This document shows positions 2,986 to 20,000 of a stretch of DNA of 20,000 bases, piece after piece (position 1 is the first letter of the stretch; the number at the start of each line of letters is the position of its first letter). The position numbers and the translations under genes are program-made. The DNA is from an uncultured virus (IMG/VR IMGVR_UViG_3300027815_000008) (Duplodnaviria > Heunggongvirae > Uroviricota > Caudoviricetes): the IMG/VR virus record IMGVR_UViG_3300027815_000008; one strand, written 5' to 3'. A model generated the notes under the pieces. That model ran no database searches and was not told the origin of the DNA. It saw only the letters and a list, made by a program, of their open reading frames with translations.

Positions 2986-5900
2986 CTAGTTGAAGTCCAA
3001 GCGTAGTTCCCCGATGCGCGCCTTATCAAGCTGCCCGGCGTAAAGTGTGAGTCGAAGCGTGACGTAGCCCCCCGCGGTGAAGGCCCCGGCCCCCACAGTG
3101 ATGGCGGATTCCGTCCAGGTCGTATTCTGTAACGCTCCCCCGTTGGTGAGCGTCACTTCCGCGTTGTTGGTTCCCCACATACGGGCCTCTACCTTCGCCA
3201 TACCCCCCAACCCCTGGATCACCTGGTTGAAAAGCCGTAGCGCGTTCCACGACACGAAGTTCGCCGGCAACCGAAACCTCACGACAACCGATACGTCGTT
3301 GGTGCCGGTTGCGTCGGTTGTCCACTCATAGAAGTTGTGGAAGTTCGTCGGGTCAAAGCCAGTTGTCAGGCCCAGGGCACCCGCCTCGTTGAGTGTCCCA
3401 TCAAAGAAGACAACAGCCCCCATGTACTCCGGCACCAGCGTGTCTATGAAGTTGGATGGGGCAGCCGCAACCGCTTCCCCGACATCCTTCCATACCGTAC
3501 CGTCATTGGTGAACTGGACCTTATTGGTCGTGTCCTCGAACCTCAACCCAGGCTTGTTGACGTCAGCATTGTTGAAGAGCACGCTCTTGTTGCCTGCCCC
3601 ACCGTTACCCAGGGAGAAGGTATTCGCATTGGTCCCCGTATCGGTGTTCGGACTATGCAGTCTGGCATCTTGCGTGGTGACGTAGGGGTTGCCCGAACCC
3701 GGCGTCCCCGCAGTGCCGGTCATTGCATCGTTCTCGTTCTGTGCGGGTAGCCGAGTGTCTTGATGGGTTACAAATCTGTTGGTGTTGGAGGGGGCCGGCT
3801 GCCCAGAGATGATCTGGGCGGCATCCCGGTTCGCCTGGGTTAGCATACGCAGGTCTGTGTCCGTCACAAACCGGTTGAAGGTGGAGGGGGCTGCCTGGCC
3901 TGTGATGGTCTGCAGGGCATCGTTCTCGGACTGGGTAGGGACACGGCCATCAGTATCTGCCACCGCAGCGGGAAGCGCCGGGTTGGCGGGGTCATTGGTG
4001 AGTACAACTACCCCCAGAACACCCGCCCCGGCCTTGGGTATCGAGGCGGAGGTTACGGTAAGGCGAGCCTCTCCTGAAACTATGTCAATAGAAGCGAGAT
4101 CCCCCAGGACCTTCAACCGAGAAGTCAGGCCTTTATCCACCGATTCGTCAAAGATCGATATGTTCTGAGCATCAGCTGCACGGCCAGAGAGGCCTGTGAG
4201 CACGATCTCGTCGGCGCCCCCATCCTCATGGGACGCCTTGTGGCTGGCTGCCGGGCGGGCGTCGCTCAGCCGGGTATCAGCATTGGTGACGTACTTGTTC
4301 GTGCCAGAAGGGATACCCGATGTCCCCGCCAACGCCAACTTCTGGGCTGCTGTAGGTAACGACGGGATTGCGTCTGCGCCCGTCGTCTCATGATCCGCCC
4401 CGTGACCAAAATCCGAGATCGTGGCCTTGAGCTGCGTGCCGGAATGGTTAGCCCGCGCCCGGTCCGCCACATGGTAATGCGCAGAGGAGTCCCCGCCATC
4501 GATCAGGTCGGTTGCCTGTGCCCCCGTGAGATTATTCACCTGCGCGCCCGACTCAATCGTGTCGAGCTTCAGTTTCTGCGCAGAAGCGAAGAGCCCCATC
4601 TGAGCGTCCGTGGTAGCGAGCATCCGGGGGTCGTTGTCCCCCACAGCCTTTGGGTTGGTCGCAGTAGCCGCGGCTACAGAAAGCTTGGTGACACCCTTGA
4701 TAGTATCGGAGGCGTCCACGGGCGCTGCTGCGCTGACCGTAACCGTAAGTCGGTTGGCGGAGACCGCGGCAGAGACCATGGCCCCTGCAAAGTCGATCTC
4801 CGTCACTGGACCCAGAGAACCCCCCTCGTCGAAGGCCTTCAACGTACCGGACGCCCTGATCCAGTAACCCGTCGTGGGGTTATCGTCTGGACGCTCGTCC
4901 CCGGCAGTAGCTTGAGCGTCGTATCGATAGAACGCGCCAGCGTCCTCAATCAACCGGACCTGCTTGTCCTGCCGGTTGGCTGCCACGATCGCCCGGAGGT
5001 CTATAAGGGCCTGTACCGGGGCGGCGTAGAAGCCCCCCACAGAGGCCACCTGGGCCTTCACTGTGGCCAGGGTGGCCAACTGGGTGTCCAAGGTAGGGTC
5101 GACCCCAACGATGGCCGCTGTGAAGGCCCTGGAGCCGTCTGCCTTGATCCAGGCGGTGTCGGTCACGCTGACCGCTATAGGCCCAGGTCCGGAAGCCGGT
5201 GCGGAAGAGAGTTTGGCAATGCCTTTGACCGTCACAGCGGCATCAGGGGTAAAACCCAGTTCAACGTAGGCAACACCGTCGTGGGAAAATTCCCACTTCC
5301 CGGTCACCTGGTTCCAGCGCTGTCTTGGTGGGTTGGTTTGCCCGGTAGCAGCCTCCAACACCTTGTCGGACACGGCAGAGCCGTCTCCGATCGAGAAGAT
5401 GTTCGAGCTGGTCCCAAGGTCGGCATTCCGGGCGTGCATCCGCGAGTCGTTGGTGCCCACTGCAATAGGTTGGGTCGCGTTGGCGGGAGCCGTCGTGAGT
5501 AACACAACCCCTTTGAAGCTGGTTGAGGCGTCCGTGATGCCCACACCCTGGCTGATATTGATATTCACGCCGCCGGTACCGTCATCAGTGACGTTGACCC
5601 CAGACCCTGCCCAGCTAAACGTCGTAGCACCCGCCAAGACCAATGCAGCGCCCAACTTGGCGTTAACCCCACCCGCGGGCGTCTGGAAAGCCGACCCGGT
5701 CCAGGTGCGGTAAGCGGACAGGTCAGATCGGTAGATCGTCAACCCGGCGTCAGCGGACACCAGACCTGTTGTTGACGGATCAGCTGTGGCCGCGGGTATC
5801 CGCACGCCTTTGGTGCCCAGGCCCAGGTCCACACGCCCATCAGAGCGCACCTTGAAGAGCGCAGTACCGGCCAGGTTGGATACCAGGAGGTCGGAGGCAC

Positions 5901-6531
5901 CGGCGCTATCTGGGAGGCGAATGCGTAAGTTCCGACTGGCGGCGGGCTGGATCTGGATATCCCCTACGGAGTCGGTCAGAACCTGACCAACCAGGTCCCC
6001 TACGAAGTCCGCATACCGCCAAGCTGCCCCGGTATAGAAACGCGGTCTGGCGGTGCCGCTCTCCACGTAAATATCGCCGACTTGAAGCCCTTGAGTAGGG
6101 TCTGTGGTAGCTACGGGGAGGCGGGCGGCGAACCCAGCAGCAGGCACGAGACGTACCTTGCCGGCCGAGCCTACCGTGATGTCCCCCACGGTGTTGGCTA
6201 CCGACGGTGAAGTACCCGTAAGAGTCAGGTTACCGGATTGGGTAACCACACCGGCCGTAGAGACTTGAAACTGATTACCGGACCCAGGATTGATTGCGAA
6301 CGCGCCGGTAATAGTAAGAGCGCCCAGACCGGTAAGCACTGGAGCGCTGATGCTTGCCGCCGTCAGCACGCCGGCTGTAGTGACCGAGAAGACTTCACCG
6401 GTGCCCGGATCCAACGAGATGCGGCCCGTAGCTTTGAACGTCGTCACCCAGCTGGGTTTGGTACCGGAATTCAGCTCCGCCTCGGTCAGGAAGGCGCCTT
6501 CAGCACCGGCTACGTGCGTCTTGGTTCCCAT
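2986..6531 (-). CDS. Long tail-fibre-like protein (1181 aa)
   Basis: GGGAG RBS; Ala/Gly/Thr-rich. Four copies of a DASxxxKGVxxLSxAPA-type fibre repeat, a RANHSGTQxxxTISDF motif, and four PSxxNx(Y/F)VTxxDxR(L/M)-like repeats. Confidence 0.75.
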   Translation of the reverse strand: MGTKTHVAGAEGAFLTEAELNSGTKPSWVTTFKATGRISLDPGTGEVFSVTTAGVLTAASISAPVLTGLGALTITGAFAINPGSGNQFQVSTAGVVTQSGNLTLTGTSPSVANTVGDITVGSAGKVRLVPAAGFAARLPVATTDPTQGLQVGDIYVESGTARPRFYTGAAWRYADFVGDLVGQVLTDSVGDIQIQPAASRNLRIRLPDSAGASDLLVSNLAGTALFKVRSDGRVDLGLGTKGVRIPAATADPSTTGLVSADAGLTIYRSDLSAYRTWTGSAFQTPAGGVNAKLGAALVLAGATTFSWAGSGVNVTDDGTGGVNINISQGVGITDASTSFKGVVLLTTAPANATQPIAVGTNDSRMHARNADLGTSSNIFSIGDGSAVSDKVLEAATGQTNPPRQRWNQVTGKWEFSHDGVAYVELGFTPDAAVTVKGIAKLSSAPASGPGPIAVSVTDTAWIKADGSRAFTAAIVGVDPTLDTQLATLATVKAQVASVGGFYAAPVQALIDLRAIVAANRQDKQVRLIEDAGAFYRYDAQATAGDERPDDNPTTGYWIRASGTLKAFDEGGSLGPVTEIDFAGAMVSAAVSANRLTVTVSAAAPVDASDTIKGVTKLSVAAATATNPKAVGDNDPRMLATTDAQMGLFASAQKLKLDTIESGAQVNNLTGAQATDLIDGGDSSAHYHVADRARANHSGTQLKATISDFGHGADHETTGADAIPSLPTAAQKLALAGTSGIPSGTNKYVTNADTRLSDARPAASHKASHEDGGADEIVLTGLSGRAADAQNISIFDESVDKGLTSRLKVLGDLASIDIVSGEARLTVTSASIPKAGAGVLGVVVLTNDPANPALPAAVADTDGRVPTQSENDALQTITGQAAPSTFNRFVTDTDLRMLTQANRDAAQIISGQPAPSNTNRFVTHQDTRLPAQNENDAMTGTAGTPGSGNPYVTTQDARLHSPNTDTGTNANTFSLGNGGAGNKSVLFNNADVNKPGLRFEDTTNKVQFTNDGTVWKDVGEAVAAAPSNFIDTLVPEYMGAVVFFDGTLNEAGALGLTTGFDPTNFHNFYEWTTDATGTNDVSVVVRFRLPANFVSWNALRLFNQVIQGLGGMAKVEARMWGTNNAEVTLTNGGALQNTTWTESAITVGAGAFTAGGYVTLRLTLYAGQLDKARIGELRLDFN

Positions 6532-11664: not shown

Positions 11665-11829
11665 GCTGCGACTCCTCTTTAGGTTCACCCAAGCTTACCG
11701 CAAGCTTCAGCACCCAGTCCAGGGCCAAAACTGGAAACCAGGGCGCAGAACCGCGCCTCCTTTCCGGTATAAGGACTATAGGAGAGAAATGCTCCTCCGG
11801 CACAGCTCCAGCCGGGCCAAAAAAGGAGC

Positions 11830-11857
11830 CCTGTGCGCTGCAACCCCAGCGCACAGG
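11830..11857. promoter_or_regulatory. Perfect 11-bp inverted repeat in the divergent intergenic region (operator or minus-strand terminator)
   Basis: CCTGTGCGCTG-caaccc-CAGCGCACAGG. An A6 run at 11819-11824 gives a U6 tract 5 nt after the stem on the minus strand. Confidence 0.45.
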
Positions 11858-11900
11858 TCATAATCCCGGCGCCCACGACGCCTACAATATCGAGGGGAGA

Positions 11901-12374
11901 GTGACCATGGCCACCACAACGACAGTAATAGAAACCAGGTTCTTGGTGCGAACCCTGGCCCAGGTGGGCCGGGTTTGTCAGTCCCTGGACCAGGCCCTGG
12001 GCCTGGTATGGAGGTGCCGTGAGGCGCAGGGGTCCACCTCCTGGCACCGGGCCAACAACCTCCTTCAGGAGGTGTTAGGAGCGGCGGCACTGAATGTGAT
12101 CATGCAGGGGTTCAACCCCTGCACCCTCAGGGTAGGACCCGATGAGCTGGTCTATAAGACCGGGTCAGGCATAAGCCTGACCGTGTTGCGGGCGGATGTC
12201 CGCCCGGACCTGTGGAGGGTCGAGATCCACATACCAAGAACTAGAAACCGGAGCGTGAGCCTGGCCCTCTGCCGCTCCCCCGGCGGTTGGAAGGAGGTGT
12301 ACCCCACGCCCGTGGCGTGGGGCACCTCCAGGAAAGAGTACCGGCAGGCACTGCTGCTGCTGCAGCACGCCTAG
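11901..12374 (+). CDS. Hypothetical protein (start GTG 11901 or ATG 11907)
   Basis: Purine-rich GAGGGGAGA RBS, with TACAAT at 11883-11888 just upstream. No family recognised. Confidence 0.65.
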   Translation: MTMATTTTVIETRFLVRTLAQVGRVCQSLDQALGLVWRCREAQGSTSWHRANNLLQEVLGAAALNVIMQGFNPCTLRVGPDELVYKTGSGISLTVLRADVRPDLWRVEIHIPRTRNRSVSLALCRSPGGWKEVYPTPVAWGTSRKEYRQALLLLQHA

Positions 12375-12385
12375 CCCCAAAAGGT

Positions 12386-12676
12386 CCCACCCCCACCGGT
12401 CTATCCGGTGGGAAACTCCAGCAACCTCGACTGGATACCTGGTGGGTTAGAGGATGGTTCGATAGGGCCGTAAGGCCCAGCGGGACGAAGTCAAGCATCC
12501 GTGAGGATGGATTGGCTGTTCCCGCCCGCCCATGGCTCTGCAAGCCAACTGAATTGCAGAGGGTGGTGACCAACACCTGCGTAGTTAGAAATCCTGCGTC
12601 CCCCCAAGACAGCAAACCGCTGTGGGATGGATACAGGTTCGGGCACCGGGTAGCCTAGAAATAGACCCGGCATCTT
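12386..12676 (+). ncRNA. Candidate structured non-coding RNA, family not recognised
   Basis: Intergenic segment with at least seven hand-identified stems, three GNRA tetraloops (GUAA, GUGA, GAAA) and long-range closing helices. See finding. Confidence 0.6.
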
Positions 12677-12697
12677 ACACCAAGGAGGTGATTAAGG

Positions 12698-12988
12698 ATG
12701 AAAGCAATCGAGAGGGCCCTGGAATGGGCCCCCCTCCAGCGTCGATTTGACGCGGAGGGCCGGGAGATCCCCCGCTGGTGGGGGATCACCCGGGCAGGGG
12801 AGCCCATAAAATGGGCTCCCAGACCACGGGGGGTTAACCCCGACCAGGGGGATAGAAACACCCCCTGGTATCAGGCGGAGAGCCACCGTCACGTGGACGG
12901 TGGAGTCCACGTCTTCGGCACGCTGGCCGAGGCGATGGACGCATTCCTGGAGGAGTGCGAGGGGCGATCCCCACTCCCCATCAAGTAA
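12698..12988 (+). CDS. Hypothetical Trp-rich protein (96 aa)
   Basis: Near-perfect RBS AAGGAGGTGAT before ATG; immediately followed by terminator-like hairpins. Confidence 0.8.
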   Translation: MKAIERALEWAPLQRRFDAEGREIPRWWGITRAGEPIKWAPRPRGVNPDQGDRNTPWYQAESHRHVDGGVHVFGTLAEAMDAFLEECEGRSPLPIK

Positions 12989-13041
12989 GCACCCGCCTTA
13001 CGAGGCGGGTGCAGGAGAGGGGCTCAGGCCCCTTCTTCTTT
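12989..13041 (+). terminator. Double hairpin between convergent genes; probable intrinsic terminator
   Basis: GCACCCGCCT-tacg-AGGCGGGTGC (10 bp, UNCG-type loop), then AGGGGC-tcag-GCCCCT followed by TCTTCTTT. Confidence 0.7.
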
Positions 13042-13051
13042 GCCCCTGAAC

Positions 13052-13507
13052 TTAATATGCCCAGAAATCCTCATCCCCGATATCCTCGCTGAAGAATGGG
13101 TCTTCTGGCATGAGGCTTCTCGTGCCCCCCTCATACGCCTTGGCATACCCCGTATCGATCAGCCACTGGTTCACAGAGGTCGTTTCCCCGGGCAGGAAGA
13201 CTTCGGCCAGCGTCCGGCCGTACTTCTCGACCTTCAAGACTTTGATTACTAGATCCTGGCCTGTGATGGTTTTGGCGTCCTCGAACGTCGAGACCTCTGT
13301 CCCTGCCAGCCTGGTGGCCAAGGCTATCGTCGACGCCTTTCCTTTTTTTACTACCTCAGGGTCGCCGCGGATCTCCGGGGCATCGATATGAGCCAGCCGG
13401 ATCATGACTTCCAGAGACAAGTCCATCCACAACCCAACACGGACTCTGATCGTGTCAGCATCGTGGACGTAAAGCAGCGTGGCGTTGTACGTGAAGTTGG
13501 GTTTCAT
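13052..13507 (-). CDS. Staphylococcal-nuclease (thermonuclease/SNase) family protein
   Basis: Motifs VHDADTI, IRLAHIDAPE, EKYGRTLAEV and VNQWLIDTGYAKAYEGG match the SNase catalytic layout. Start set at ATG 13507, just after the upstream stop. Confidence 0.9.
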   Translation of the reverse strand: MKPNFTYNATLLYVHDADTIRVRVGLWMDLSLEVMIRLAHIDAPEIRGDPEVVKKGKASTIALATRLAGTEVSTFEDAKTITGQDLVIKVLKVEKYGRTLAEVFLPGETTSVNQWLIDTGYAKAYEGGTRSLMPEDPFFSEDIGDEDFWAY

Positions 13508-13514
13508 GGGACGG

Positions 13515-13922
13515 CTACTTCCCTTGGTACATGGCATTGGGGGCCTGTCGGGCGTCTTGTTGGAAGCCCCCCTTGATAATGATCGGGGGCCTGCTCTCGG
13601 ATCTTCGCAGCAGAGCCTGAAGATCTTCTTTCATGCTGTGCTGGTCTCTGGCCAGGATCTCGACGCGGGCTTTGAGCTGGCCTACGAGTAAGACATCTCG
13701 AAACCACTCTACAGCTGGATCTTTCAAGAAGCTCCACAGGATGCCTGCCACGATGCCAGCTGCCGTGAGAAGGCCGGTCAAAGCCTTCCATTGCTTTTTC
13801 GCCAAGCTCCAGAGCGTGACGCCCCGGAGCCGTTGAATCAGCTCAGGTAGCTCTTCCAAAGCCTTGAGTTTGTCCTCAACGACCGTAAGCCTGGCGCTGG
13901 CTGTAGATGTTTTGGTTGTCAT
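13515..13922 (-). CDS. Small single-TM coiled-coil membrane protein, holin/XhlA-like architecture
   Basis: Coiled coil (RLTVVEDKLKALEE), hydrophobic segment (ALTGLLTAAGIVAGILWSFL), second coiled coil. The holin-like label is inferred from architecture only. Confidence 0.65.
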   Translation of the reverse strand: MTTKTSTASARLTVVEDKLKALEELPELIQRLRGVTLWSLAKKQWKALTGLLTAAGIVAGILWSFLKDPAVEWFRDVLLVGQLKARVEILARDQHSMKEDLQALLRRSESRPPIIIKGGFQQDARQAPNAMYQGK

Positions 13923-13931
13923 CTGAAACCG

Positions 13932-13982
13932 TTACCAGCTTTCAAGACAAGCATCGTAGATGTACGTGAGGTTGGGTTTCAT
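13932..13982 (-). pseudogene. 16-codon mini-ORF that is a remnant copy of the nuclease 5' end
   Basis: MKPNLTYIYDACLESW versus nuclease MKPNFTYNATLLYVHDAD. 13961-13982 matches 13486-13507 at 21/22 nt. Confidence 0.65.
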
Positions 13983-13986
13983 AGGG

Positions 13987-14892
13987 CTATCTCCCAGGGC
14001 TTGAAGTGGGACTTGGTGCCTGCCCCACTCGTAAAGCGTCCCGGATCTCCTGGATATCTTTTCTTTGCTGGGCTTGGTTTACTTGATCTAGCTTTTGCTG
14101 GGCCTGGATTCTATCCATCGTAGGTTTCAGGTCTCCTGTGAGTTGCTGTTTTAACCCAGGGATAACTTCGACACTGGATTGGACTTGTTGCAGCGCCTCG
14201 ATTCCAATACTCAAGAGCAACCCAGTGACCCCTACCAGGAAAAGCAATAGTACGAGAATGCAGCCCTTGAGAAACAGACTTGCCTTCGCCCATTGCCGGC
14301 TGGTGACCGTGGACAAGGTCAAGGCTGCTGCGTCCGAGATAGCCGTAGCTGCCTGTGTCTGAGCCGTACTGGCAACCATACAGGCGCTCGCTGCGGCTTT
14401 GCTACAAACCAAGATACCCTCCTCGATCTTGGCTCTGGACACGGTCTCCGAATCCATGTGAGCAACCAAAGTCTCTGCTAGAGCATCAAACTTGGTCTCC
14501 AACCGCCTGAAACCTGTACGTACGCCGGCCTCTCTGAGCAAACCCCAAAGGAAATCCACGAGCTTGGCGGTATCCAAGACATTCTTGGACAAGATGAGCT
14601 GCCCGGGGATCTTGGGGAGAGGGTCCATCCCAGTAACAAAGACGATCCCGATATGGGGGCTATGACTTCGGACCCAATCCGCCAGCGGGGCGCCCCCCAT
14701 CCCCGACATATTATAGTCCGCCAGGATGGCTCCTACAGGGCTGGCGATATCGGTCTGTTCTATCCGACGCTGAGCGGCCTCCCCACTAGGATGGCACTCG
14801 ACCAAGAAGCCCGCTTCGGTAAGCGTCTTGTTCAGCAGGAAAAGATCGTCGGGCTCGTCGTCAACAAGAAGAACCGTCCAACGTGGGATCAC
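13987..14892 (-). CDS. Receiver (REC) domain + transmembrane helix + coiled-coil protein, paralog 2
   Basis: VLLVDDE, ILADYNMSGMGG (D59), VFVTG (T87), ILSK (K103). TM segment GCILVLLLFLVGVTGLLLSIGI. GTG start overlaps the upstream TGA (GTGA). Confidence 0.85.
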   Translation of the reverse strand: MIPRWTVLLVDDEPDDLFLLNKTLTEAGFLVECHPSGEAAQRRIEQTDIASPVGAILADYNMSGMGGAPLADWVRSHSPHIGIVFVTGMDPLPKIPGQLILSKNVLDTAKLVDFLWGLLREAGVRTGFRRLETKFDALAETLVAHMDSETVSRAKIEEGILVCSKAAASACMVASTAQTQAATAISDAAALTLSTVTSRQWAKASLFLKGCILVLLLFLVGVTGLLLSIGIEALQQVQSSVEVIPGLKQQLTGDLKPTMDRIQAQQKLDQVNQAQQRKDIQEIRDALRVGQAPSPTSSPGR

Positions 14893-15824
14893 GGTATTCG
14901 TGGCTTCTTTGGGGGGTTCACCGGTATGGGGCTAGCCCTGGGCGGGGTATGCGGAGGCTCTTGCAAGTGCTCCAGAACTTGCTTGACGTCATCCCTCATC
15001 CGCTGCTGCCCCTCCTGGAATTTCGTCTGCTGTGTTTCGATTTTGTGAATGGCGGGCTTGATGTCCCGCTGGACCTCTTCCTGGATTTTCAAGATATCCT
15101 GGACCTTGGTGTGGGCATCCCTGGCAAAGTACGACCCCAGCATAAAGATGCTCCCGACCAGCCCTGACACGACAACAACGACAACGCTGCCTGCCCCCCG
15201 GGTCAAGGGATCAAGTCGGTCCCACCATCGTTTGGACACGGTTGCTAGAGTTGTCTCCAACAACTCCTTCTTCAAGTCTACGGACATGTCGTGGGCCGTC
15301 TTGGATACGACGCAAGCTTGCGTGGCTGCAGCGCTGCATACAAGTATGGCTTCTTCGACCCGACTAGACGACGCTGCTGCGGCTACAATATGAACTTTCA
15401 GGGTGTCCGAGAGCCCATCGACTTTTGTTCCTAATTGGGTGAACCCTGACTGGACAATGGCAGCTTTAAGGGCTCCCCAAAGGGAGTCCACCAAGGCATC
15501 CATATCAAGTCCGGTTTTGGCCAGAACACGATAGCCCGGCAATACGGGAAGTGGGTCATCCCCTGTGATGAACACGACCCCTATATGCGGACTGTGATTG
15601 CGGGTCCAGTTGGCCAATGCCAGCCCGCTAAGCCCCGGCATATGAAGGTCCGTGACGAGTACGCCTACTGGGTTGTTATGGTCCGCTTGGGCAATACGGG
15701 CTTTGGCAGCTTCTCCCCCCGTATAGCACTCCACCAGGAACCCGGCCCTCGTAAGCCCTGCCTCAAGGACCTGGCACATGCCGGGGTAATCATCCACGAC
15801 CAGGACTGTCCAAGTGTTTTCCAT
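14889..15824 (-). CDS. Receiver (REC) domain + transmembrane helix + coiled-coil protein, paralog 1
   Basis: VLVVDD, LVTDLHMPGLSG (D59), VFITG (T87), VLAK (K103). TM segment GAGSVVVVVVSGLVGSIFMLGSYF. Pro-rich tail. Confidence 0.85.
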   Translation of the reverse strand: MENTWTVLVVDDYPGMCQVLEAGLTRAGFLVECYTGGEAAKARIAQADHNNPVGVLVTDLHMPGLSGLALANWTRNHSPHIGVVFITGDDPLPVLPGYRVLAKTGLDMDALVDSLWGALKAAIVQSGFTQLGTKVDGLSDTLKVHIVAAAASSSRVEEAILVCSAAATQACVVSKTAHDMSVDLKKELLETTLATVSKRWWDRLDPLTRGAGSVVVVVVSGLVGSIFMLGSYFARDAHTKVQDILKIQEEVQRDIKPAIHKIETQQTKFQEGQQRMRDDVKQVLEHLQEPPHTPPRASPIPVNPPKKPRIP

Positions 15825-16054: not shown

Positions 16055-16870
16055 TCAATCCCAGTCATACCCACAGACGTACAGGTACAATGAACGGGTC
16101 GTGTCGGCGACATCAATTTTGTAGTACACCTGCTGGCTGCTCGTTATAGGGCAGGGGAACTGCGTATACCCATAGGTATTCGCAGTCACGTTGGTCATCC
16201 AGGCATGACCAACGACGCCGTCTGGCCCAAAATGCACCAGCCGTGCTTCGAGGTTGGATATAAAGGCCAAGGTAAAGCGAGCATTCCTGGACTGTGGGGA
16301 TACTCTGCTGGACAGTGACACAGCCGTCCAGGTTGTGGCGTTACCCCCCGAAAGTATCGCTGGAAGCGAGTCGTAGTAATGCACGGTCTTCCCGACCCCT
16401 GAGTATGCAAGGATGTTGCCGGCGGCGTCCAATCGGGCAATGGTAGCCAGGGCAAAGTAAGTGTAGCCTGACGGAAGCGTGGGACTGGTTGCAGAGGCGC
16501 TCCAGGTAGACGCCGTTGTAGTTCCGTTGGATATGACATAGCCATAGATGAAGCTGCTGATCGAAAAGGCCCCGGCCTGGTCCCGACCGTTAACCGCTGG
16601 GCCTGCCACGCTCTTGTCCGGGACAACCGATACGCTGGTAACGGTTTTGGCGGTGTTGTTGGAGTCCGCAAGTGTCAAAGAATTCGCCGTAATCGTGCCG
16701 CTGTTTGCGCTGGTGTAGACGGTTAACAAGTTAGCCCGGGACCCTAGCGTATCCACACCGCCAATGACCTTGACCACGCCCGTCACATGGTTGAACTCCA
16801 GGCCCCCTCCAACCACGAGAAGGCCACAAGAAAGCATCCCGACCAGCAAGCCCAGCTTTCTGTAGTTCAT
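16055..16870 (-). CDS. Signal-peptide-bearing tail-fibre-tip-like protein, paralog 4
   Basis: N-terminus MNYRKLGLLVGMLSCGLLVVGGG; shared core LTLADSNN...VISNGTTTA...SPTLPSGYTY. Confidence 0.8.
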   Translation of the reverse strand: MNYRKLGLLVGMLSCGLLVVGGGLEFNHVTGVVKVIGGVDTLGSRANLLTVYTSANSGTITANSLTLADSNNTAKTVTSVSVVPDKSVAGPAVNGRDQAGAFSISSFIYGYVISNGTTTASTWSASATSPTLPSGYTYFALATIARLDAAGNILAYSGVGKTVHYYDSLPAILSGGNATTWTAVSLSSRVSPQSRNARFTLAFISNLEARLVHFGPDGVVGHAWMTNVTANTYGYTQFPCPITSSQQVYYKIDVADTTRSLYLYVCGYDWD

Positions 16871-16876
16871 AAAGCC

Positions 16877-17377
16877 CTACAGCTTGAGCTTCAACGCGGC
16901 TATCTCTGCCGTGAGATCGTCCTTCTGCTTGGTCAGATCAGCGTCCCCTGGCAGGTCTACCAGGAGATCGGTCACGGCGTTGAGCTTTTTCTTGGACTCG
17001 ACCAGCGCCGCAAGCGTGCTCTTGCGCTGGGCAGCCTTGATATCCACCAGAAGATCGGCTTCCGGGCGGCAGCAAAGATGAGGCTTTCCCGGGACCTCTT
17101 CTTCGATACGCAGCGTGGGAACACGCAGGCCCTGTGCCAGGTCCTGAGTGGCCTTCGTGGGTTCTGCGTCACAGGCGGGATGGCCGCACATGTCTTTGAA
17201 TGGCAACACCAAGACCTCTTCTCCTGGACCAGGCGTGCCCACGGCCTTGGGGTTAGACTCGCCCTGGTTCATCTCCAGCACGACCTTAGTGGCGCTGTTG
17301 ATGCGAAAGACATGAAACCCAGGGTCTGCCCACGCAGAGACCTGTACGCAGAACAAGAACATGATCACGAGTTTCAT
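16877..17377 (-). CDS. Secreted hypothetical protein with a Cys cluster and C-terminal coiled coil
   Basis: Signal peptide MKLVIMFLFCVQVSAWA with an AxA cleavage site; TAGGAG RBS; CGHPAC and CC motifs; heptad-patterned C-terminus. Confidence 0.8.
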   Translation of the reverse strand: MKLVIMFLFCVQVSAWADPGFHVFRINSATKVVLEMNQGESNPKAVGTPGPGEEVLVLPFKDMCGHPACDAEPTKATQDLAQGLRVPTLRIEEEVPGKPHLCCRPEADLLVDIKAAQRKSTLAALVESKKKLNAVTDLLVDLPGDADLTKQKDDLTAEIAALKLKL

Positions 17378-17385
17378 AAAGGCTC

Positions 17386-18216
17386 CTAAAAGTCGTCGTA
17401 GTACCCGTTCGTGTAAAGGCTTGTACGGTCGGACGTATCTGCGTTGCGGTACGTAATGTTCGTTCCGTCCGTGAGAACTTGAATCGGGACGTATACCGTA
17501 GGCGTTGCAGCGGGGGAATCAAGAGTAAAATAAAGGGAGCCTGTCGTCCAGCTTGTCCCCGGCCTGACAAAGTACGCGGCACTGGTTTGTGCCCCAGACG
17601 CACTGCCGCCGCTCTGAACGCCCAGCATAACCATTCGGGTTGTTGTGGGCACGAATGCTGTGACATCAACATTGGTGTTGGACGTAGCTGCCCCGTTTGA
17701 CAGAATGAGGATCTCGCCGTTCATACAAAAGGTGCCTTGTTGGACAAAATCCAGGAAAGTGCTGGTCCCATTGTTCCGTACCCACCCGACACGACGCTTG
17801 AACGTATACGTCGCAGGCAGCGTCGGGGAAGCCGTGGACGCAGAGAGCAACCCGGCAACGGTCGTGCCGTCGTTCTTGCAGATGACCCAGATACTCCTCC
17901 AGGCGGAAGCTGAATCCAACCCCGAAGCATCCGGGCCGTTGACCCCAACGGCAGCGGAGATGTCCAGTGTCAGGGAGATGTTGCGGACGACGCGGGCGTA
18001 CCCGTCCGCATCAGCCAGGGCAAGGGCGTCGGCGGCAACCGTGACGGTGTTGGCCGTGGCGTATTGGACTAGCAATGCCTGGTAAGCACCCAGGGGGGCC
18101 TCCCCACCCAGGCCCCTGACGGTGCCCGTCTGGGTGCTCATGTCCATGCTGCCAGCACCTAGAAGTAGCAGGCTGGCACAGAGAAGTCCTGATAGGAGAG
18201 CCAGCTTGGTTTTCAT
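17386..18216 (-). CDS. Signal-peptide-bearing tail-fibre-tip-like protein, paralog 3
   Basis: Start moved to ATG 18216 (MKTKLALLSGLLCASLLLLGAG, AAGGGA upstream). Core DISAAVGVNGPDASGLDSASAWRSIWVI...KRRVGWVRN. Confidence 0.85.
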   Translation of the reverse strand: MKTKLALLSGLLCASLLLLGAGSMDMSTQTGTVRGLGGEAPLGAYQALLVQYATANTVTVAADALALADADGYARVVRNISLTLDISAAVGVNGPDASGLDSASAWRSIWVICKNDGTTVAGLLSASTASPTLPATYTFKRRVGWVRNNGTSTFLDFVQQGTFCMNGEILILSNGAATSNTNVDVTAFVPTTTRMVMLGVQSGGSASGAQTSAAYFVRPGTSWTTGSLYFTLDSPAATPTVYVPIQVLTDGTNITYRNADTSDRTSLYTNGYYDDF

Positions 18217-18238
18217 AATGTCCCTTCTGCGCCTGTTG

Positions 18239-18433
18239 TTACTGGCTACTCCACAGATTGTCAAAGTACACTATAACGGCTATGTGGGCCGCGCCGACGC
18301 CGGAAAGGTCCGCCGTCGAGCACTGGTTGCGCTCCAGCACGAGACCATCAGATACGCGGATCCGCATGACGTGGAAGAGAGGGTCGGCATACGCCGCAGA
18401 TGCCAGCATAAGAAATAACCCGATGGTTTTCAT
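18239..18433 (-). CDS. Short (64 aa), possibly truncated paralog of the 16877..17377 secreted protein
   Basis: ATG at 18433 after TAGGA. MKTIGLFLMLASAAYA-DPLFHVMRIRVSDGLVLERNQ aligns with SAWA-DPGFHVFRINSATKVVLEMNQ. Confidence 0.7.
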   Translation of the reverse strand: MKTIGLFLMLASAAYADPLFHVMRIRVSDGLVLERNQCSTADLSGVGAAHIAVIVYFDNLWSSQ

Positions 18434-18440
18434 ATGGATC

Positions 18441-19226
18441 CTAGAGGTTGTCAAAATACCCCCCCTGGTCATAGAGATCTAAGTTTCCACCCGATTCGAC
18501 CCAGTATTTGATATTCTGGGTCGTGGAACACGGCACCCAGCCCATGGCGGACTCCGGGGCTTTTACGACCGCCACTTGTGGACCCTGACCAGCATATGTC
18601 AGATAGCATGTTCCTGCATTTCCTTGTAAGTAGGCGTGATACAAGCTGGCTGTAGGCGGGATATATGCGCTAACATCAATGTTTGTTGCGGTAGTCGCGG
18701 TGCCAGCAGAAAGGATATTCGTACTGCTGGTACCCTTCTGCACCCACCCGCCACGCTGTATAGATGTGATAAAATTACTGCTTGCATCGTTCCGTACCCA
18801 TCCAACACGCCTCTTGTACGTGTACCCAGATGGCATTGTGGGGGCTGTTTGTGACGCCGATAACAGCCCCGCCGTTGTCGTGCCATTGGAGATAACCCAG
18901 ATGCTTCTCCAAGCACTTACAGAATCCAGACCTGAAGCATCTGGTCCGTTAGCGCCAACGGCAGCCGAGATATCTGGGGTAACACTAACGGCATTGGCAA
19001 CCTTGCCAGAGTTGTTCGAGTCCGCCAGGGTGATCGTATCGACAGTGACAGTAACCGTATTGGCGGTGGCGTACTGGATCAATAAGTTGGAGTAGCTACC
19101 CAGAGGGATGGCGTCTCCAACGACCTTGAACGTTCCTGCCTGATGGTTGATCTCCAGGCTGGCGCCCATTGCAAGCAGGCACCCCAGGAAAAGGCCCAGG
19201 GTCAAGAACAGCTTTAAGGGTTTCAT
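18441..19226 (-). CDS. Signal-peptide-bearing tail-fibre-tip-like protein, paralog 2
   Basis: Start moved to ATG 19226 (TAGGAG RBS; MKPLKLFLTLGLFLGCLLAMGA). Same conserved core as paralogs 1 and 3. Confidence 0.85.
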   Translation of the reverse strand: MKPLKLFLTLGLFLGCLLAMGASLEINHQAGTFKVVGDAIPLGSYSNLLIQYATANTVTVTVDTITLADSNNSGKVANAVSVTPDISAAVGANGPDASGLDSVSAWRSIWVISNGTTTAGLLSASQTAPTMPSGYTYKRRVGWVRNDASSNFITSIQRGGWVQKGTSSTNILSAGTATTATNIDVSAYIPPTASLYHAYLQGNAGTCYLTYAGQGPQVAVVKAPESAMGWVPCSTTQNIKYWVESGGNLDLYDQGGYFDNL

Positions 19227-19233
19227 AGGGCTC

Positions 19234-20000
19234 CTACAGATTGTCAACCCAGCCACCAAGTAGATAGAGAGTCAAATTACCGGCAGTTACCTTGTACTGT
19301 ATAACCTGAGAAGTAGAACAAGCCATCCAATAACCGCCGCTCTCTGACGCACTAGATCCGACTATGTTTCGTGAGTATATCTTACAGGAGAGATATCCAA
19401 TATTTCCGCTGGCCATTACCAGGTACACGTTGGTCATTGTCGCTGTGCTGGGCAGATGCGCGCTTAGATCAATGTCCACCATAGTAGTGCTTGTGCCAGT
19501 ATTTAATACTTGCTGATCTCCGCCGCCGAGTTGTACTAGCATGTTTCGTTGGGTGAACGGAATAAAGGCGCTACTCGCGTCATTCTTGACCCACCCGACC
19601 CTGCGCTTGTACGTGTACCCGCTGGGCATCGTAGGGGCCGTGGTGGAGGCGGATAACAAACCAGCCGTGGTAGTGCCGTTAGAAATGACCCAGATGCTTC
19701 GCCACGTTGAGACAGCATCCAGACCAGAAGCGTCTGGACCGTTTGCTCCCACGGCAGCTGAGATGTCAGGCGCTACGCTGACAGTGTTGACGACTTTCCC
19801 AGAGTTATTGGAGTCTGCCAGAGTAATGCTGTCTACCGTAACCGTAACTACGTTGGCGCTGGTGTAGACGATCAAGAGGTTGGAGTAACTTCCAAGAGGA
19901 ACAGCATCTCCAACGATCTTGAAAGATCCTGTGGTGGAGTTGATCTCAAAGCCAGCGCCCGTAATGCCCAGGCATATCAAAGCCAGGCCTAGAACAACAC
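19234..20000 (-). CDS. Signal-peptide-bearing tail-fibre-tip-like protein, paralog 1; 5' end outside the window
   Basis: Frame stays open to the window edge (..VVLGLALICLGITGAGFEIN..). Core nearly identical in protein to paralog 2. Confidence 0.85.
   Translation of the reverse strand, partial: VVLGLALICLGITGAGFEINSTTGSFKIVGDAVPLGSYSNLLIVYTSANVVTVTVDSITLADSNNSGKVVNTVSVAPDISAAVGANGPDASGLDAVSTWRSIWVISNGTTTAGLLSASTTAPTMPSGYTYKRRVGWVKNDASSAFIPFTQRNMLVQLGGGDQQVLNTGTSTTMVDIDLSAHLPSTATMTNVYLVMASGNIGYLSCKIYSRNIVGSSASESGGYWMACSTSQVIQYKVTAGNLTLYLLGGWVDNL

Follow-up and report, generated by a model that had tools for sequence, protein, structure and literature searches.

In known phage lysis clocks, timing depends on the accumulation of holin, on membrane potential and on antiholins. 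According to the accessible part of the report on T4 holin T, a short cytoplasmic amphipathic helix is needed for hole formation (PMC12162936), and the N4 protein gp63 is described in the available text as a C-terminally anchored pinholin with a single transmembrane (TM) helix and a cytoplasmic helical part, regulated near the TM helix (PMC12642591). As a precedent for a holin fused to a receiver (REC) domain, gp63 was rejected, because "Receiver domain" is a mere name for a cluster of mutations, with no REC fold, in the available sections of that paper (PMC12642591). The CheY-like proteins gp11/gp30 of the Alteromonas phages A5, V22 and P24 are treated as auxiliary, with their role unassigned, and the accessible parts of the papers make no link between them and lysis (PMC10579305, PMC7289586). 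REC domains that lack helix α4 exist among phosphotransfer intermediates, including CckA-Rec, Sma0114 and SdrG, and are phosphorylatable, as stated in the available text of PMC9981736. Our search of the literature on phage RECs with membrane or lysis functions, which covered mainly open-access articles without their supplements, found no REC-TM fusion in phages. This agrees with an earlier sequence-only reading, which was aware of no described system with such an architecture.

Here, we analyzed a 20,000-nucleotide (nt) stretch of DNA (the window), which sits in a 195.6-kb metagenomic contig (L001) of which about 26 kb was read. L001 occurs in two groundwater runs, from which it may derive; no RNA data set containing it was listed, which has no bearing on expression. 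The window carries a pair of genes encoding REC-TM proteins (Table 1). On sequence grounds, these proteins belong to an undescribed family of 17, best filed as an apparently phage-borne response regulator with a new membrane output; the family may comprise holins, an identity that we put forward as a candidate only.

Receiver domains joined to a membrane body

Both genes of the pair are intact minus-strand open reading frames (ORFs), and the GTG start of the second overlaps the upstream stop of the first by 4 nt. Their products share 118/295 identities (40%) in an ungapped BLASTP alignment (E value of 1e-76) and are sisters in the family tree (support 94/93, unstarred), and the two coupled paralogues that the sequence-only reading had placed here were thus recovered. 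Compared over 295 codons, the two genes have identities of 0.55, 0.65 and 0.30 at first, second and third positions, the last being near saturation, which argues that both are old, maintained coding genes. The earlier reading had also confined the module to 13987..15824; the pair stands, but the boundaries do not, since a third, REC-less member at 13922-13515 belongs to it too. The 69-aa protein encoded just upstream of the pair matched no family in Pfam or PHROGs.

Table 1. Features around the REC-TM genes (window positions unless L001 is named)
Feature	Position	Strand	Remarks
Seventh gene of the exported block	L001:4874-5800		Signal-peptide-like N-terminus
Fibre-like and chaperone-like genes with signal-peptide-like N-termini	16055..19998	(-)	Six in the window, seventh upstream
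Soluble helical-looking protein, 69 aa	15827..16036	(-)	Ends 2 nt before the start of REC-TM protein 1
REC-TM protein 1 (P0001, 311 aa)	14889..15824	(-)	ATG start; GGAG ribosome-binding-like site upstream
REC-TM protein 2 (P0002/P0053, 301 aa)	13987..14892	(-)	GTG start; paralogue of protein 1
16-codon stub, degenerate copy of the nuclease gene 5' end	13932..13982	(-)	Repeats
REC-less family member (P0256, 135 aa)	13515..13922	(-)	Body profile match
Staphylococcal-nuclease-family gene	13052..13507	(-)	PF00565, E 9e-10; phrog_452 endonuclease, E 7.5e-23

Each protein of the pair matches Response_reg (PF00072) at residues 7-90 (47.6 and 42.5 bits against a cut-off of 30.2), and no other Pfam family passes its cut-off, which bears out the lack of a DNA-binding or enzymatic output domain noted before. 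The alignment likewise confirms all five catalytic residues, D11, D12, D59, T87 and K103, in both paralogues. An AlphaFold2 model of P0001 built from 17 sequences (mean pLDDT 83.8, pTM 0.50) places the REC at residues 5-120, with five strands and helices 1-3 followed by a loop where helix α4 is expected. Fold searches with the full-length model as the query matched the REC part alone. Closest in shape were the REC structures of DctD (1L5Y/1QKK), HupR (2VUH) and StyR (1YIO), which have the same fold (Z about 19, up to 19.1; rmsd 2-5 Å) and share with P0001 an α5 extended into a helix. Unlike in ordinary RECs, the output of P0001 and P0002 is a membrane-spanning body and not a DNA-binding or enzyme domain.

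The spacing between the catalytic Thr and Lys is 14-18 residues in 17/17 family members, whereas in ordinary short RECs (48 examined, 35 measurable) it is 22 in 24/35 and at most 17 in 6/35. The residue at K-3 is never aromatic (V, I, T or L in all 17 members), a Pro at K+1 is kept in 14 of the 17, the window pair having none after K103, and both the Y-T coupling pair and the α4-β5-α5 output face are missing from the family REC. According to the accessible part of PMC9981736, CckA-Rec, Sma0114, SdrG and MrrA have a missing or disordered α4, as do the window RECs, and like the family they probably make no allosteric use of the 4-5-5 face; they differ in being soluble or part of hybrid kinases and in carrying the FATGUY motif. 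In place of this motif, the present family has a variable Pro-rich loop after the β4 Thr and the membrane body, and FATG(G/Y) at β4 is absent from the alignment (A2). Given that the α4/Y-T face is absent and α5 continues into the linker, α5 would be the only exit for a phospho-signal.

In the model of P0001, α5 runs on as one helix over residues 108-190 (pLDDT 84), followed by a Trp-rich juxtamembrane helix at 193-203 and a long helix at 206-288 that includes the hydrophobic segment. The TM helix lies at about 211-229, the outer helix extends to residue 288, and a Pro-rich tail follows. Past the REC, both window proteins contain a single hydrophobic segment that begins near residue 211, in keeping with the one TM helix per paralogue proposed earlier. 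A single Kyte-Doolittle peak above 1.5 was found in 16/17 family members, hydrophobicity being scored with the Kyte-Doolittle and Eisenberg scales. In 18/18 proteins (the 17 members and the REC-less gene product), at least one Trp immediately precedes the TM helix or lies at its beginning. The outer helix measures 36-107 residues across the family. The sequence-only reading had described a coiled coil, of which the long predicted helix remains, but heptad periodicity is clearly above that of shuffled sequences (at most 2 of 200) in just 3/18 proteins. Finally, K and R are more frequent before than after the TM helix in both window proteins, and this bias, the single TM helix and the lack of a signal peptide predict a body with N-in/C-out topology.

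As far as the available texts describe them, T4 holin T and N4 gp63 share with the predicted layout of this body a single TM helix in N-in/C-out orientation and, as the control element, a cytoplasmic or interfacial helix adjoining it; they differ in having no sequence match to the body and no phospho-switch (PMC12162936, PMC12642591), and T4 holin T differs further in its globular periplasmic domain and dedicated antiholins (PMC12162936). The body had been called holin-like, and in layout the resemblance stands, but in searches of Pfam and PHROGs (17 members each) and NCBIfam (window proteins and two bodies), no profile for a holin, antiholin or spanin matched any family member, any body or P0256, the product of the REC-less gene. 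Holins are diverse, so the absence of a profile match is compatible with a holin function.

By sequence comparison, the same body is also encoded alone, as a holin-sized protein beside the capped pair. This protein, P0256, consists of a helix, a Trp-rich segment, one TM helix (about 48-66), an outer helix and a Pro-containing tail. It matched the HMMs of the family C-terminal body with 17-18 bits, a score reached by 0/1000 shuffles, and hhalign against the family body gave 81.9% (E value of 1.1e-5). P0256 is closest to P0092, a member from another phage (score 88, 0/300 shuffles as high), whereas its score of 33 against the neighbouring window protein is at the level of shuffled sequences (94/300 as high), which ruled out a recent partial duplicate of the neighbour. 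Atlas searches with the body and with P0256 yielded sub-threshold leads only.

The stub between P0002 and P0256 shares with the nuclease gene 5' end a 25-nt repeat at 92% and a 15-nt repeat at 87%, and its alignment with that end (13457-13510) scores 45.5, which 0/1000 shuffles reach; the nuclease start at 13507 was chosen, and the longest ORF begins at 13537. From these repeats, we read the stub as a putative recombination scar. The remnant of the nuclease 5' end at this place suggests that the nuclease was at one time preceded by a capped gene as well as by an uncapped gene, which recombination later brought together; capped and uncapped forms would then occupy the same slot. The stub ORF, with a ribosome-binding-like site to itself, ends 9 nt short of the REC-less gene and may couple the translation of the latter to its own. 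The nuclease gene closes the transcription-direction unit that holds the pair and the REC-less gene.

Distribution of the family and state of the receiver

A full HMMER search with the pair over 1.84 billion representatives listed 150 matches. The family was defined as the 15 non-window matches (227-340 aa) with similarity beyond the REC plus the window pair; the remaining 133 rows, for the most part multi-REC signalling proteins, were excluded. One excluded row, P0138 (118 aa, from a contig of 1.1 kb), is a family-like REC that could be a fragment. Almost the whole family escaped word-based protein searches, and the full HMMER search alone recovered it. All 15 homologues derive from metagenomes (Logan, ENA or JGI data), and for none of them is NCBI, UniRef or nr listed as a source. 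Long contigs carry P0059 (129 kb), P0111 (137 kb), P0060 (75 kb), and P0054 and P0055 (45 kb). Two narrow scans of 185,579 species genomes, each with one or two short peptide patterns and of low sensitivity, revealed no member. Nothing came of scanning viral contigs with P0001 as the query, with a DNA pattern taken from the window or with four sub-alignments, and only the P0092 query gave a locus; a metagenome scan returned this contig alone. In cultured-phage records, tblastn with P0001, P0059, the REC-less gene product and two bodies gave REC-part or chance matches only, and no member was found in 39 viral records capsid-related to the phage that carries P0092 (mostly fragments, 2/39 at least 90% complete, no positive control). 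Within the reach of the narrow pattern scans and the source lists, no homologue was found in chromosomal two-component operons, and the refuting outcome named in the sequence-only reading was thus not seen.

All five catalytic residues are present in 9/17 members, and the phospho-Asp is kept in 12/17. By the definitions given in the accessible part of PMC12632262, 8/17 members qualify as pseudo-receivers and 5/17 as aspartate-less receivers; the family differs from the pseudo-receiver class in that it mixes both states, with the two window proteins outside the class. As a control, 132 non-family matches of the same search supplied 242 REC domains, 241 of which keep the Asp, compared with 10/15 non-window members (Fisher p 2e-6), the control being biased to intact RECs because its matches were found by REC likeness alone. 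On the family tree, Asp loss amounts to five changes (bootstrap 4-5), of which well-supported branches force only two, and several Asp-less rows are long branches. As judged from this tree, the phospho-Asp was apparently lost more than once.

These counts bear on phosphorylation as the control proposed in the sequence-only reading: the architecture is borne out, but strict phosphorylation gating as the core job of the family is weakened by the 8/17 members without the full catalytic set and the 5/17 without the Asp, and phosphorylation is probably modulatory rather than essential. The membrane body is the part kept in capped, pseudo-capped and uncapped forms, and the natural series from intact REC through pseudo-REC to no REC suits the question of what pseudo-receivers do. 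The cREC of jumbo phages was set apart by its description, as it is tied to NAD-processing genes in the available text of PMC7824862 and none was seen here.

Genomic setting in two phages and a comparison with A5

We take the contig to be that of a phage; no capsid, terminase or portal gene was seen in the visible 26 kb, and none of the ORFs scanned there is a housekeeping gene. The pair follows the fibre-like block, as the claim of a tail-fibre setting had it. Four genes of this block are paralogues by alignment, and relatives of one fibre-like gene are annotated as tail fibre in 4/6 phage records. In a model of the fibre-like protein, whose N-terminal half has pLDDT < 50, the C-terminal domain fits the tip of the Bdellovibrio fibre Bd2133 (Z 10.1 versus 7.2 for the next unrelated row; rmsd 2.6, 96 aligned); a PDB sequence match for this protein was not found. 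The block is preceded at L001:1499-4893 by a GT9 glycosyltransferase-methyltransferase fusion and more methyltransferase-like genes, possibly for modification of virion or host-surface glycans. Downstream of the REC-TM unit lie the nuclease gene and further large virion-like genes. At window 11685-13040, the minus-strand structural region is interrupted by a short island that comprises two ORFs on the plus strand (157 and 96 aa, neither assigned to a family) and a stretch that is G+C-rich and Pro/Gly-like, and terminator-like hairpins occur at 11830-11857 (-) and 13017-13034 (+); a promoter/terminator scan was uninformative. No kinase was found among the 20 window ORFs scanned of 100 listed, which upholds, for these ORFs, the earlier statement that the window lacks a histidine kinase, and no cognate histidine kinase was seen within about 26 kb of the 196-kb contig.

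Neighbourhoods were read for 2 of 16 family sources, the second being G001, the virus record (89,959 bp, 72% complete) in which the P0092 gene lies. G001 carries terminase, portal, capsid, tape measure, integrase and repressor genes and is a temperate phage. The P0092 gene is the second-last of its structural (terminase-to-fibre) operon; collagen-type fibres precede it, and a weak BppU-like gene follows. G001 has one REC gene and no HATPase domain in its 90 kb. Besides the REC genes, the sole tblastn link between L001 and G001 is a C-terminal domain at residues 1029-1181 encoded by window 2986-6531 (-), which G001 has in a tail-region protein of 247 aa (32% identity over 156 aa, E value of 2e-13). 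Elsewhere in G001, L002:16310-16876 and 16946-17893 encode an ECF-type sigma factor and a macro-domain-like gene, and tRNA-like stretches were seen by eye in spurious ORFs at about 43-46.5 kb.

The sequence-only reading had proposed a search for lysis genes nearby. An adjacent endolysin or spanin was found in neither phage: none was detected among the 26 ORFs scanned in the visible part of L001 (about 26 kb), none adjoins P0092, and the sole lysin candidate in scans of G001 (PHROGs on 91/116 called ORFs; Pfam on 130 ORFs, mostly from 183 unassigned candidates) is a CHAP-domain ORF about 18 kb off on the opposite strand. An unrecognised lysin near the REC-TM genes is possible. Among the fibre genes of G001, L002:6391-6876 encodes a 161-aa protein with one N-terminal hydrophobic segment and no family above cut-off, which could be an alternative holin candidate.

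The cultured Alteromonas phage A5 (OP481051, L049:10251-12365) has a free REC gene within an apparent lysis cassette: genes for a fibre, a chaperone and a TM-helix protein come first, then the free REC, an Rz-like spanin (phrog_4297, E value of 3e-8), a small membrane gene and the endolysin, the REC thus standing three genes before the endolysin. Spanin profiles in PHROGs matched A5 gp12, whereas none matched the family. According to the available parts of the papers, gp11/gp30 resemble the present genes in that a phage REC comes directly after tail fibres and next to small membrane genes; they differ in that the REC is free-standing (PMC10579305, PMC7289586). Its neighbours A5 gp10, gp12 and gp13 have no detectable homology to the body (137, 14 and 34 of 500 shuffles as high), and the shuffle test ruled them out as an unfused body. 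Judging from gene order and profile matches, a phage REC inside a lysis cassette exists in A5, in a different family, and A5 offers a tractable cultured system for the control of lysis by a REC.

Candidate functions

We tentatively favour a lysis-timing protein of the inner membrane, that is, a class III-type holin, a pinholin or a regulator of a holin, with the REC as an optional cap. This assignment is suggested by the body standing alone as a 135-aa gene, the Trp before or at the start of the TM helix in 18/18 proteins, the unbroken run of α5 to residue 190 in the model, the post-fibre position, the layout of T4 holin T and N4 gp63, and the A5 cassette. It is weakened by the lack of a holin match and of an adjacent lysin or spanin, by the small number of neighbourhoods (2/16), by the exported fibre-like block next door, by the alternative holin candidate of G001 and by the lack of detectable homology between the A5 membrane proteins and the body; three divergent holins in a row would also be unusual. 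The sequence-only reading had proposed a membrane protein gated by host phosphosignalling, for which the architecture, the phage setting and the want of a described system speak, while strict gating is weakened and no adjacent endolysin or spanin was found in the two neighbourhoods read.

A lysis-timing protein of this kind would be expressed late with the fibres, as gene position in two phages suggests, and would insert N-in/C-out on the strength of the topology features given above. The bodies would self-associate via their long helices, and D59 of an intact REC would be phosphorylated by a kinase of the host, by a small phosphodonor or by a kinase encoded in the unread part of the phage. 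The signal would leave through α5 into the linker helix and alter how the interfacial helix packs, and with it the threshold at which the membrane opens, by analogy to T4 holin T. Lineages without the Asp or the REC, of which both kinds are seen, would keep a signal-independent version. If true, direct phospho-input on a holin would give phages a hitherto undescribed means of sensing the state of the host; even without the lysis link, the family would represent an undescribed, apparently phage-borne output module of membrane-acting response regulators.

Possible, though not probable, is that the body organises the envelope, anchoring or gating exported fibre-like proteins while the REC serves in the cytoplasm as a switch or for docking, either for virion finishing at the envelope or for display on the infected cell. 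Such a role is suggested by the position of the gene in both phages, where it follows the only signal-peptide-bearing block among the genes tested. In L001, signal-peptide-like N-termini were found in 7 consecutive genes, a block that ends one small gene upstream of REC-TM protein 1, versus 0/15 other genes tested, and in G001 they were found in 4/6 genes directly upstream versus 0/20 other late genes. The test was a crude hydrophobicity script with gene starts chosen by the analyst, and n is 2 phages, whose fibre blocks are not detectably homologous. Signal peptides are odd for virion fibres assembled in the cytoplasm, and the exported fibre-like genes may serve export-dependent virion finishing or host-surface display. 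The fibre tip domain resembles a Bdellovibrio fibre (accessible part of PMC10769870), which fits the organiser, but lysis genes too normally follow fibres, the outer helix has only 36-107 residues, and its fibre partners are putative.

A strictly phosphorylation-gated holin, in which host state sets the burst time and lineages tune or drop this control by losing the Asp or the REC, is unlikely, as 8/17 members lack one or more catalytic residues and 5/17 lack the Asp. With such gating, the phage would mix two capped subunits and one uncapped.

The phosphate sink that the sequence-only reading had also raised, here a sink or decoy for kinases, tethered to the membrane, that would damp the two-component signalling of the host either in the lysogen or at a late stage of infection, appears quite unlikely. 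It draws support from the complete catalytic set of both window proteins, the REC being the best kept part of the pair (64/116 identities versus 5/27 in the TM helix), the α4-less RECs among phosphotransfer intermediates (available text of PMC9981736) and the REC gene of G001 without a HATPase domain in 90 kb (72% complete). As the core job of the family it is weakened, since the Asp that a sink requires is missing from 5/17 members, although Asp-less members could still block kinases as decoys. Moreover, the phage keeps a gene for the body with no REC, the family lacks the FATGUY motif, and the conserved 70-residue linker, the interfacial helix and the outer helix exceed the needs of a tether.

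Signalling owned by the phage itself, such as superinfection sensing in which an event at the envelope is detected by the outer helix and phosphate passes between the REC and a phage kinase encoded in the unread 170 kb, is decidedly unlikely. Most of the contig lies beyond the 26 kb read, and viral REC and kinase proteins exist according to the fold search, but G001 contains no kinase domain and neither does the visible 26 kb.

That the pair is an ordinary orphan response regulator of a bacterial chromosome, and the contig not a phage, is hardly credible: capsid, terminase and portal are absent from the visible 26 kb and the fibre tip resembles a bacterial (Bdellovibrio) fibre, but the fibre relatives are annotated as tail fibres, the scanned ORFs hold no housekeeping gene, no member was found in the pattern scans of 185,579 species genomes or traced to NCBI, UniRef or nr among the 15 homologues, the window shares its tail-region domain with G001 (32% over 156 aa), and the homologue P0092 sits in that phage together with terminase, portal, capsid and tape measure.
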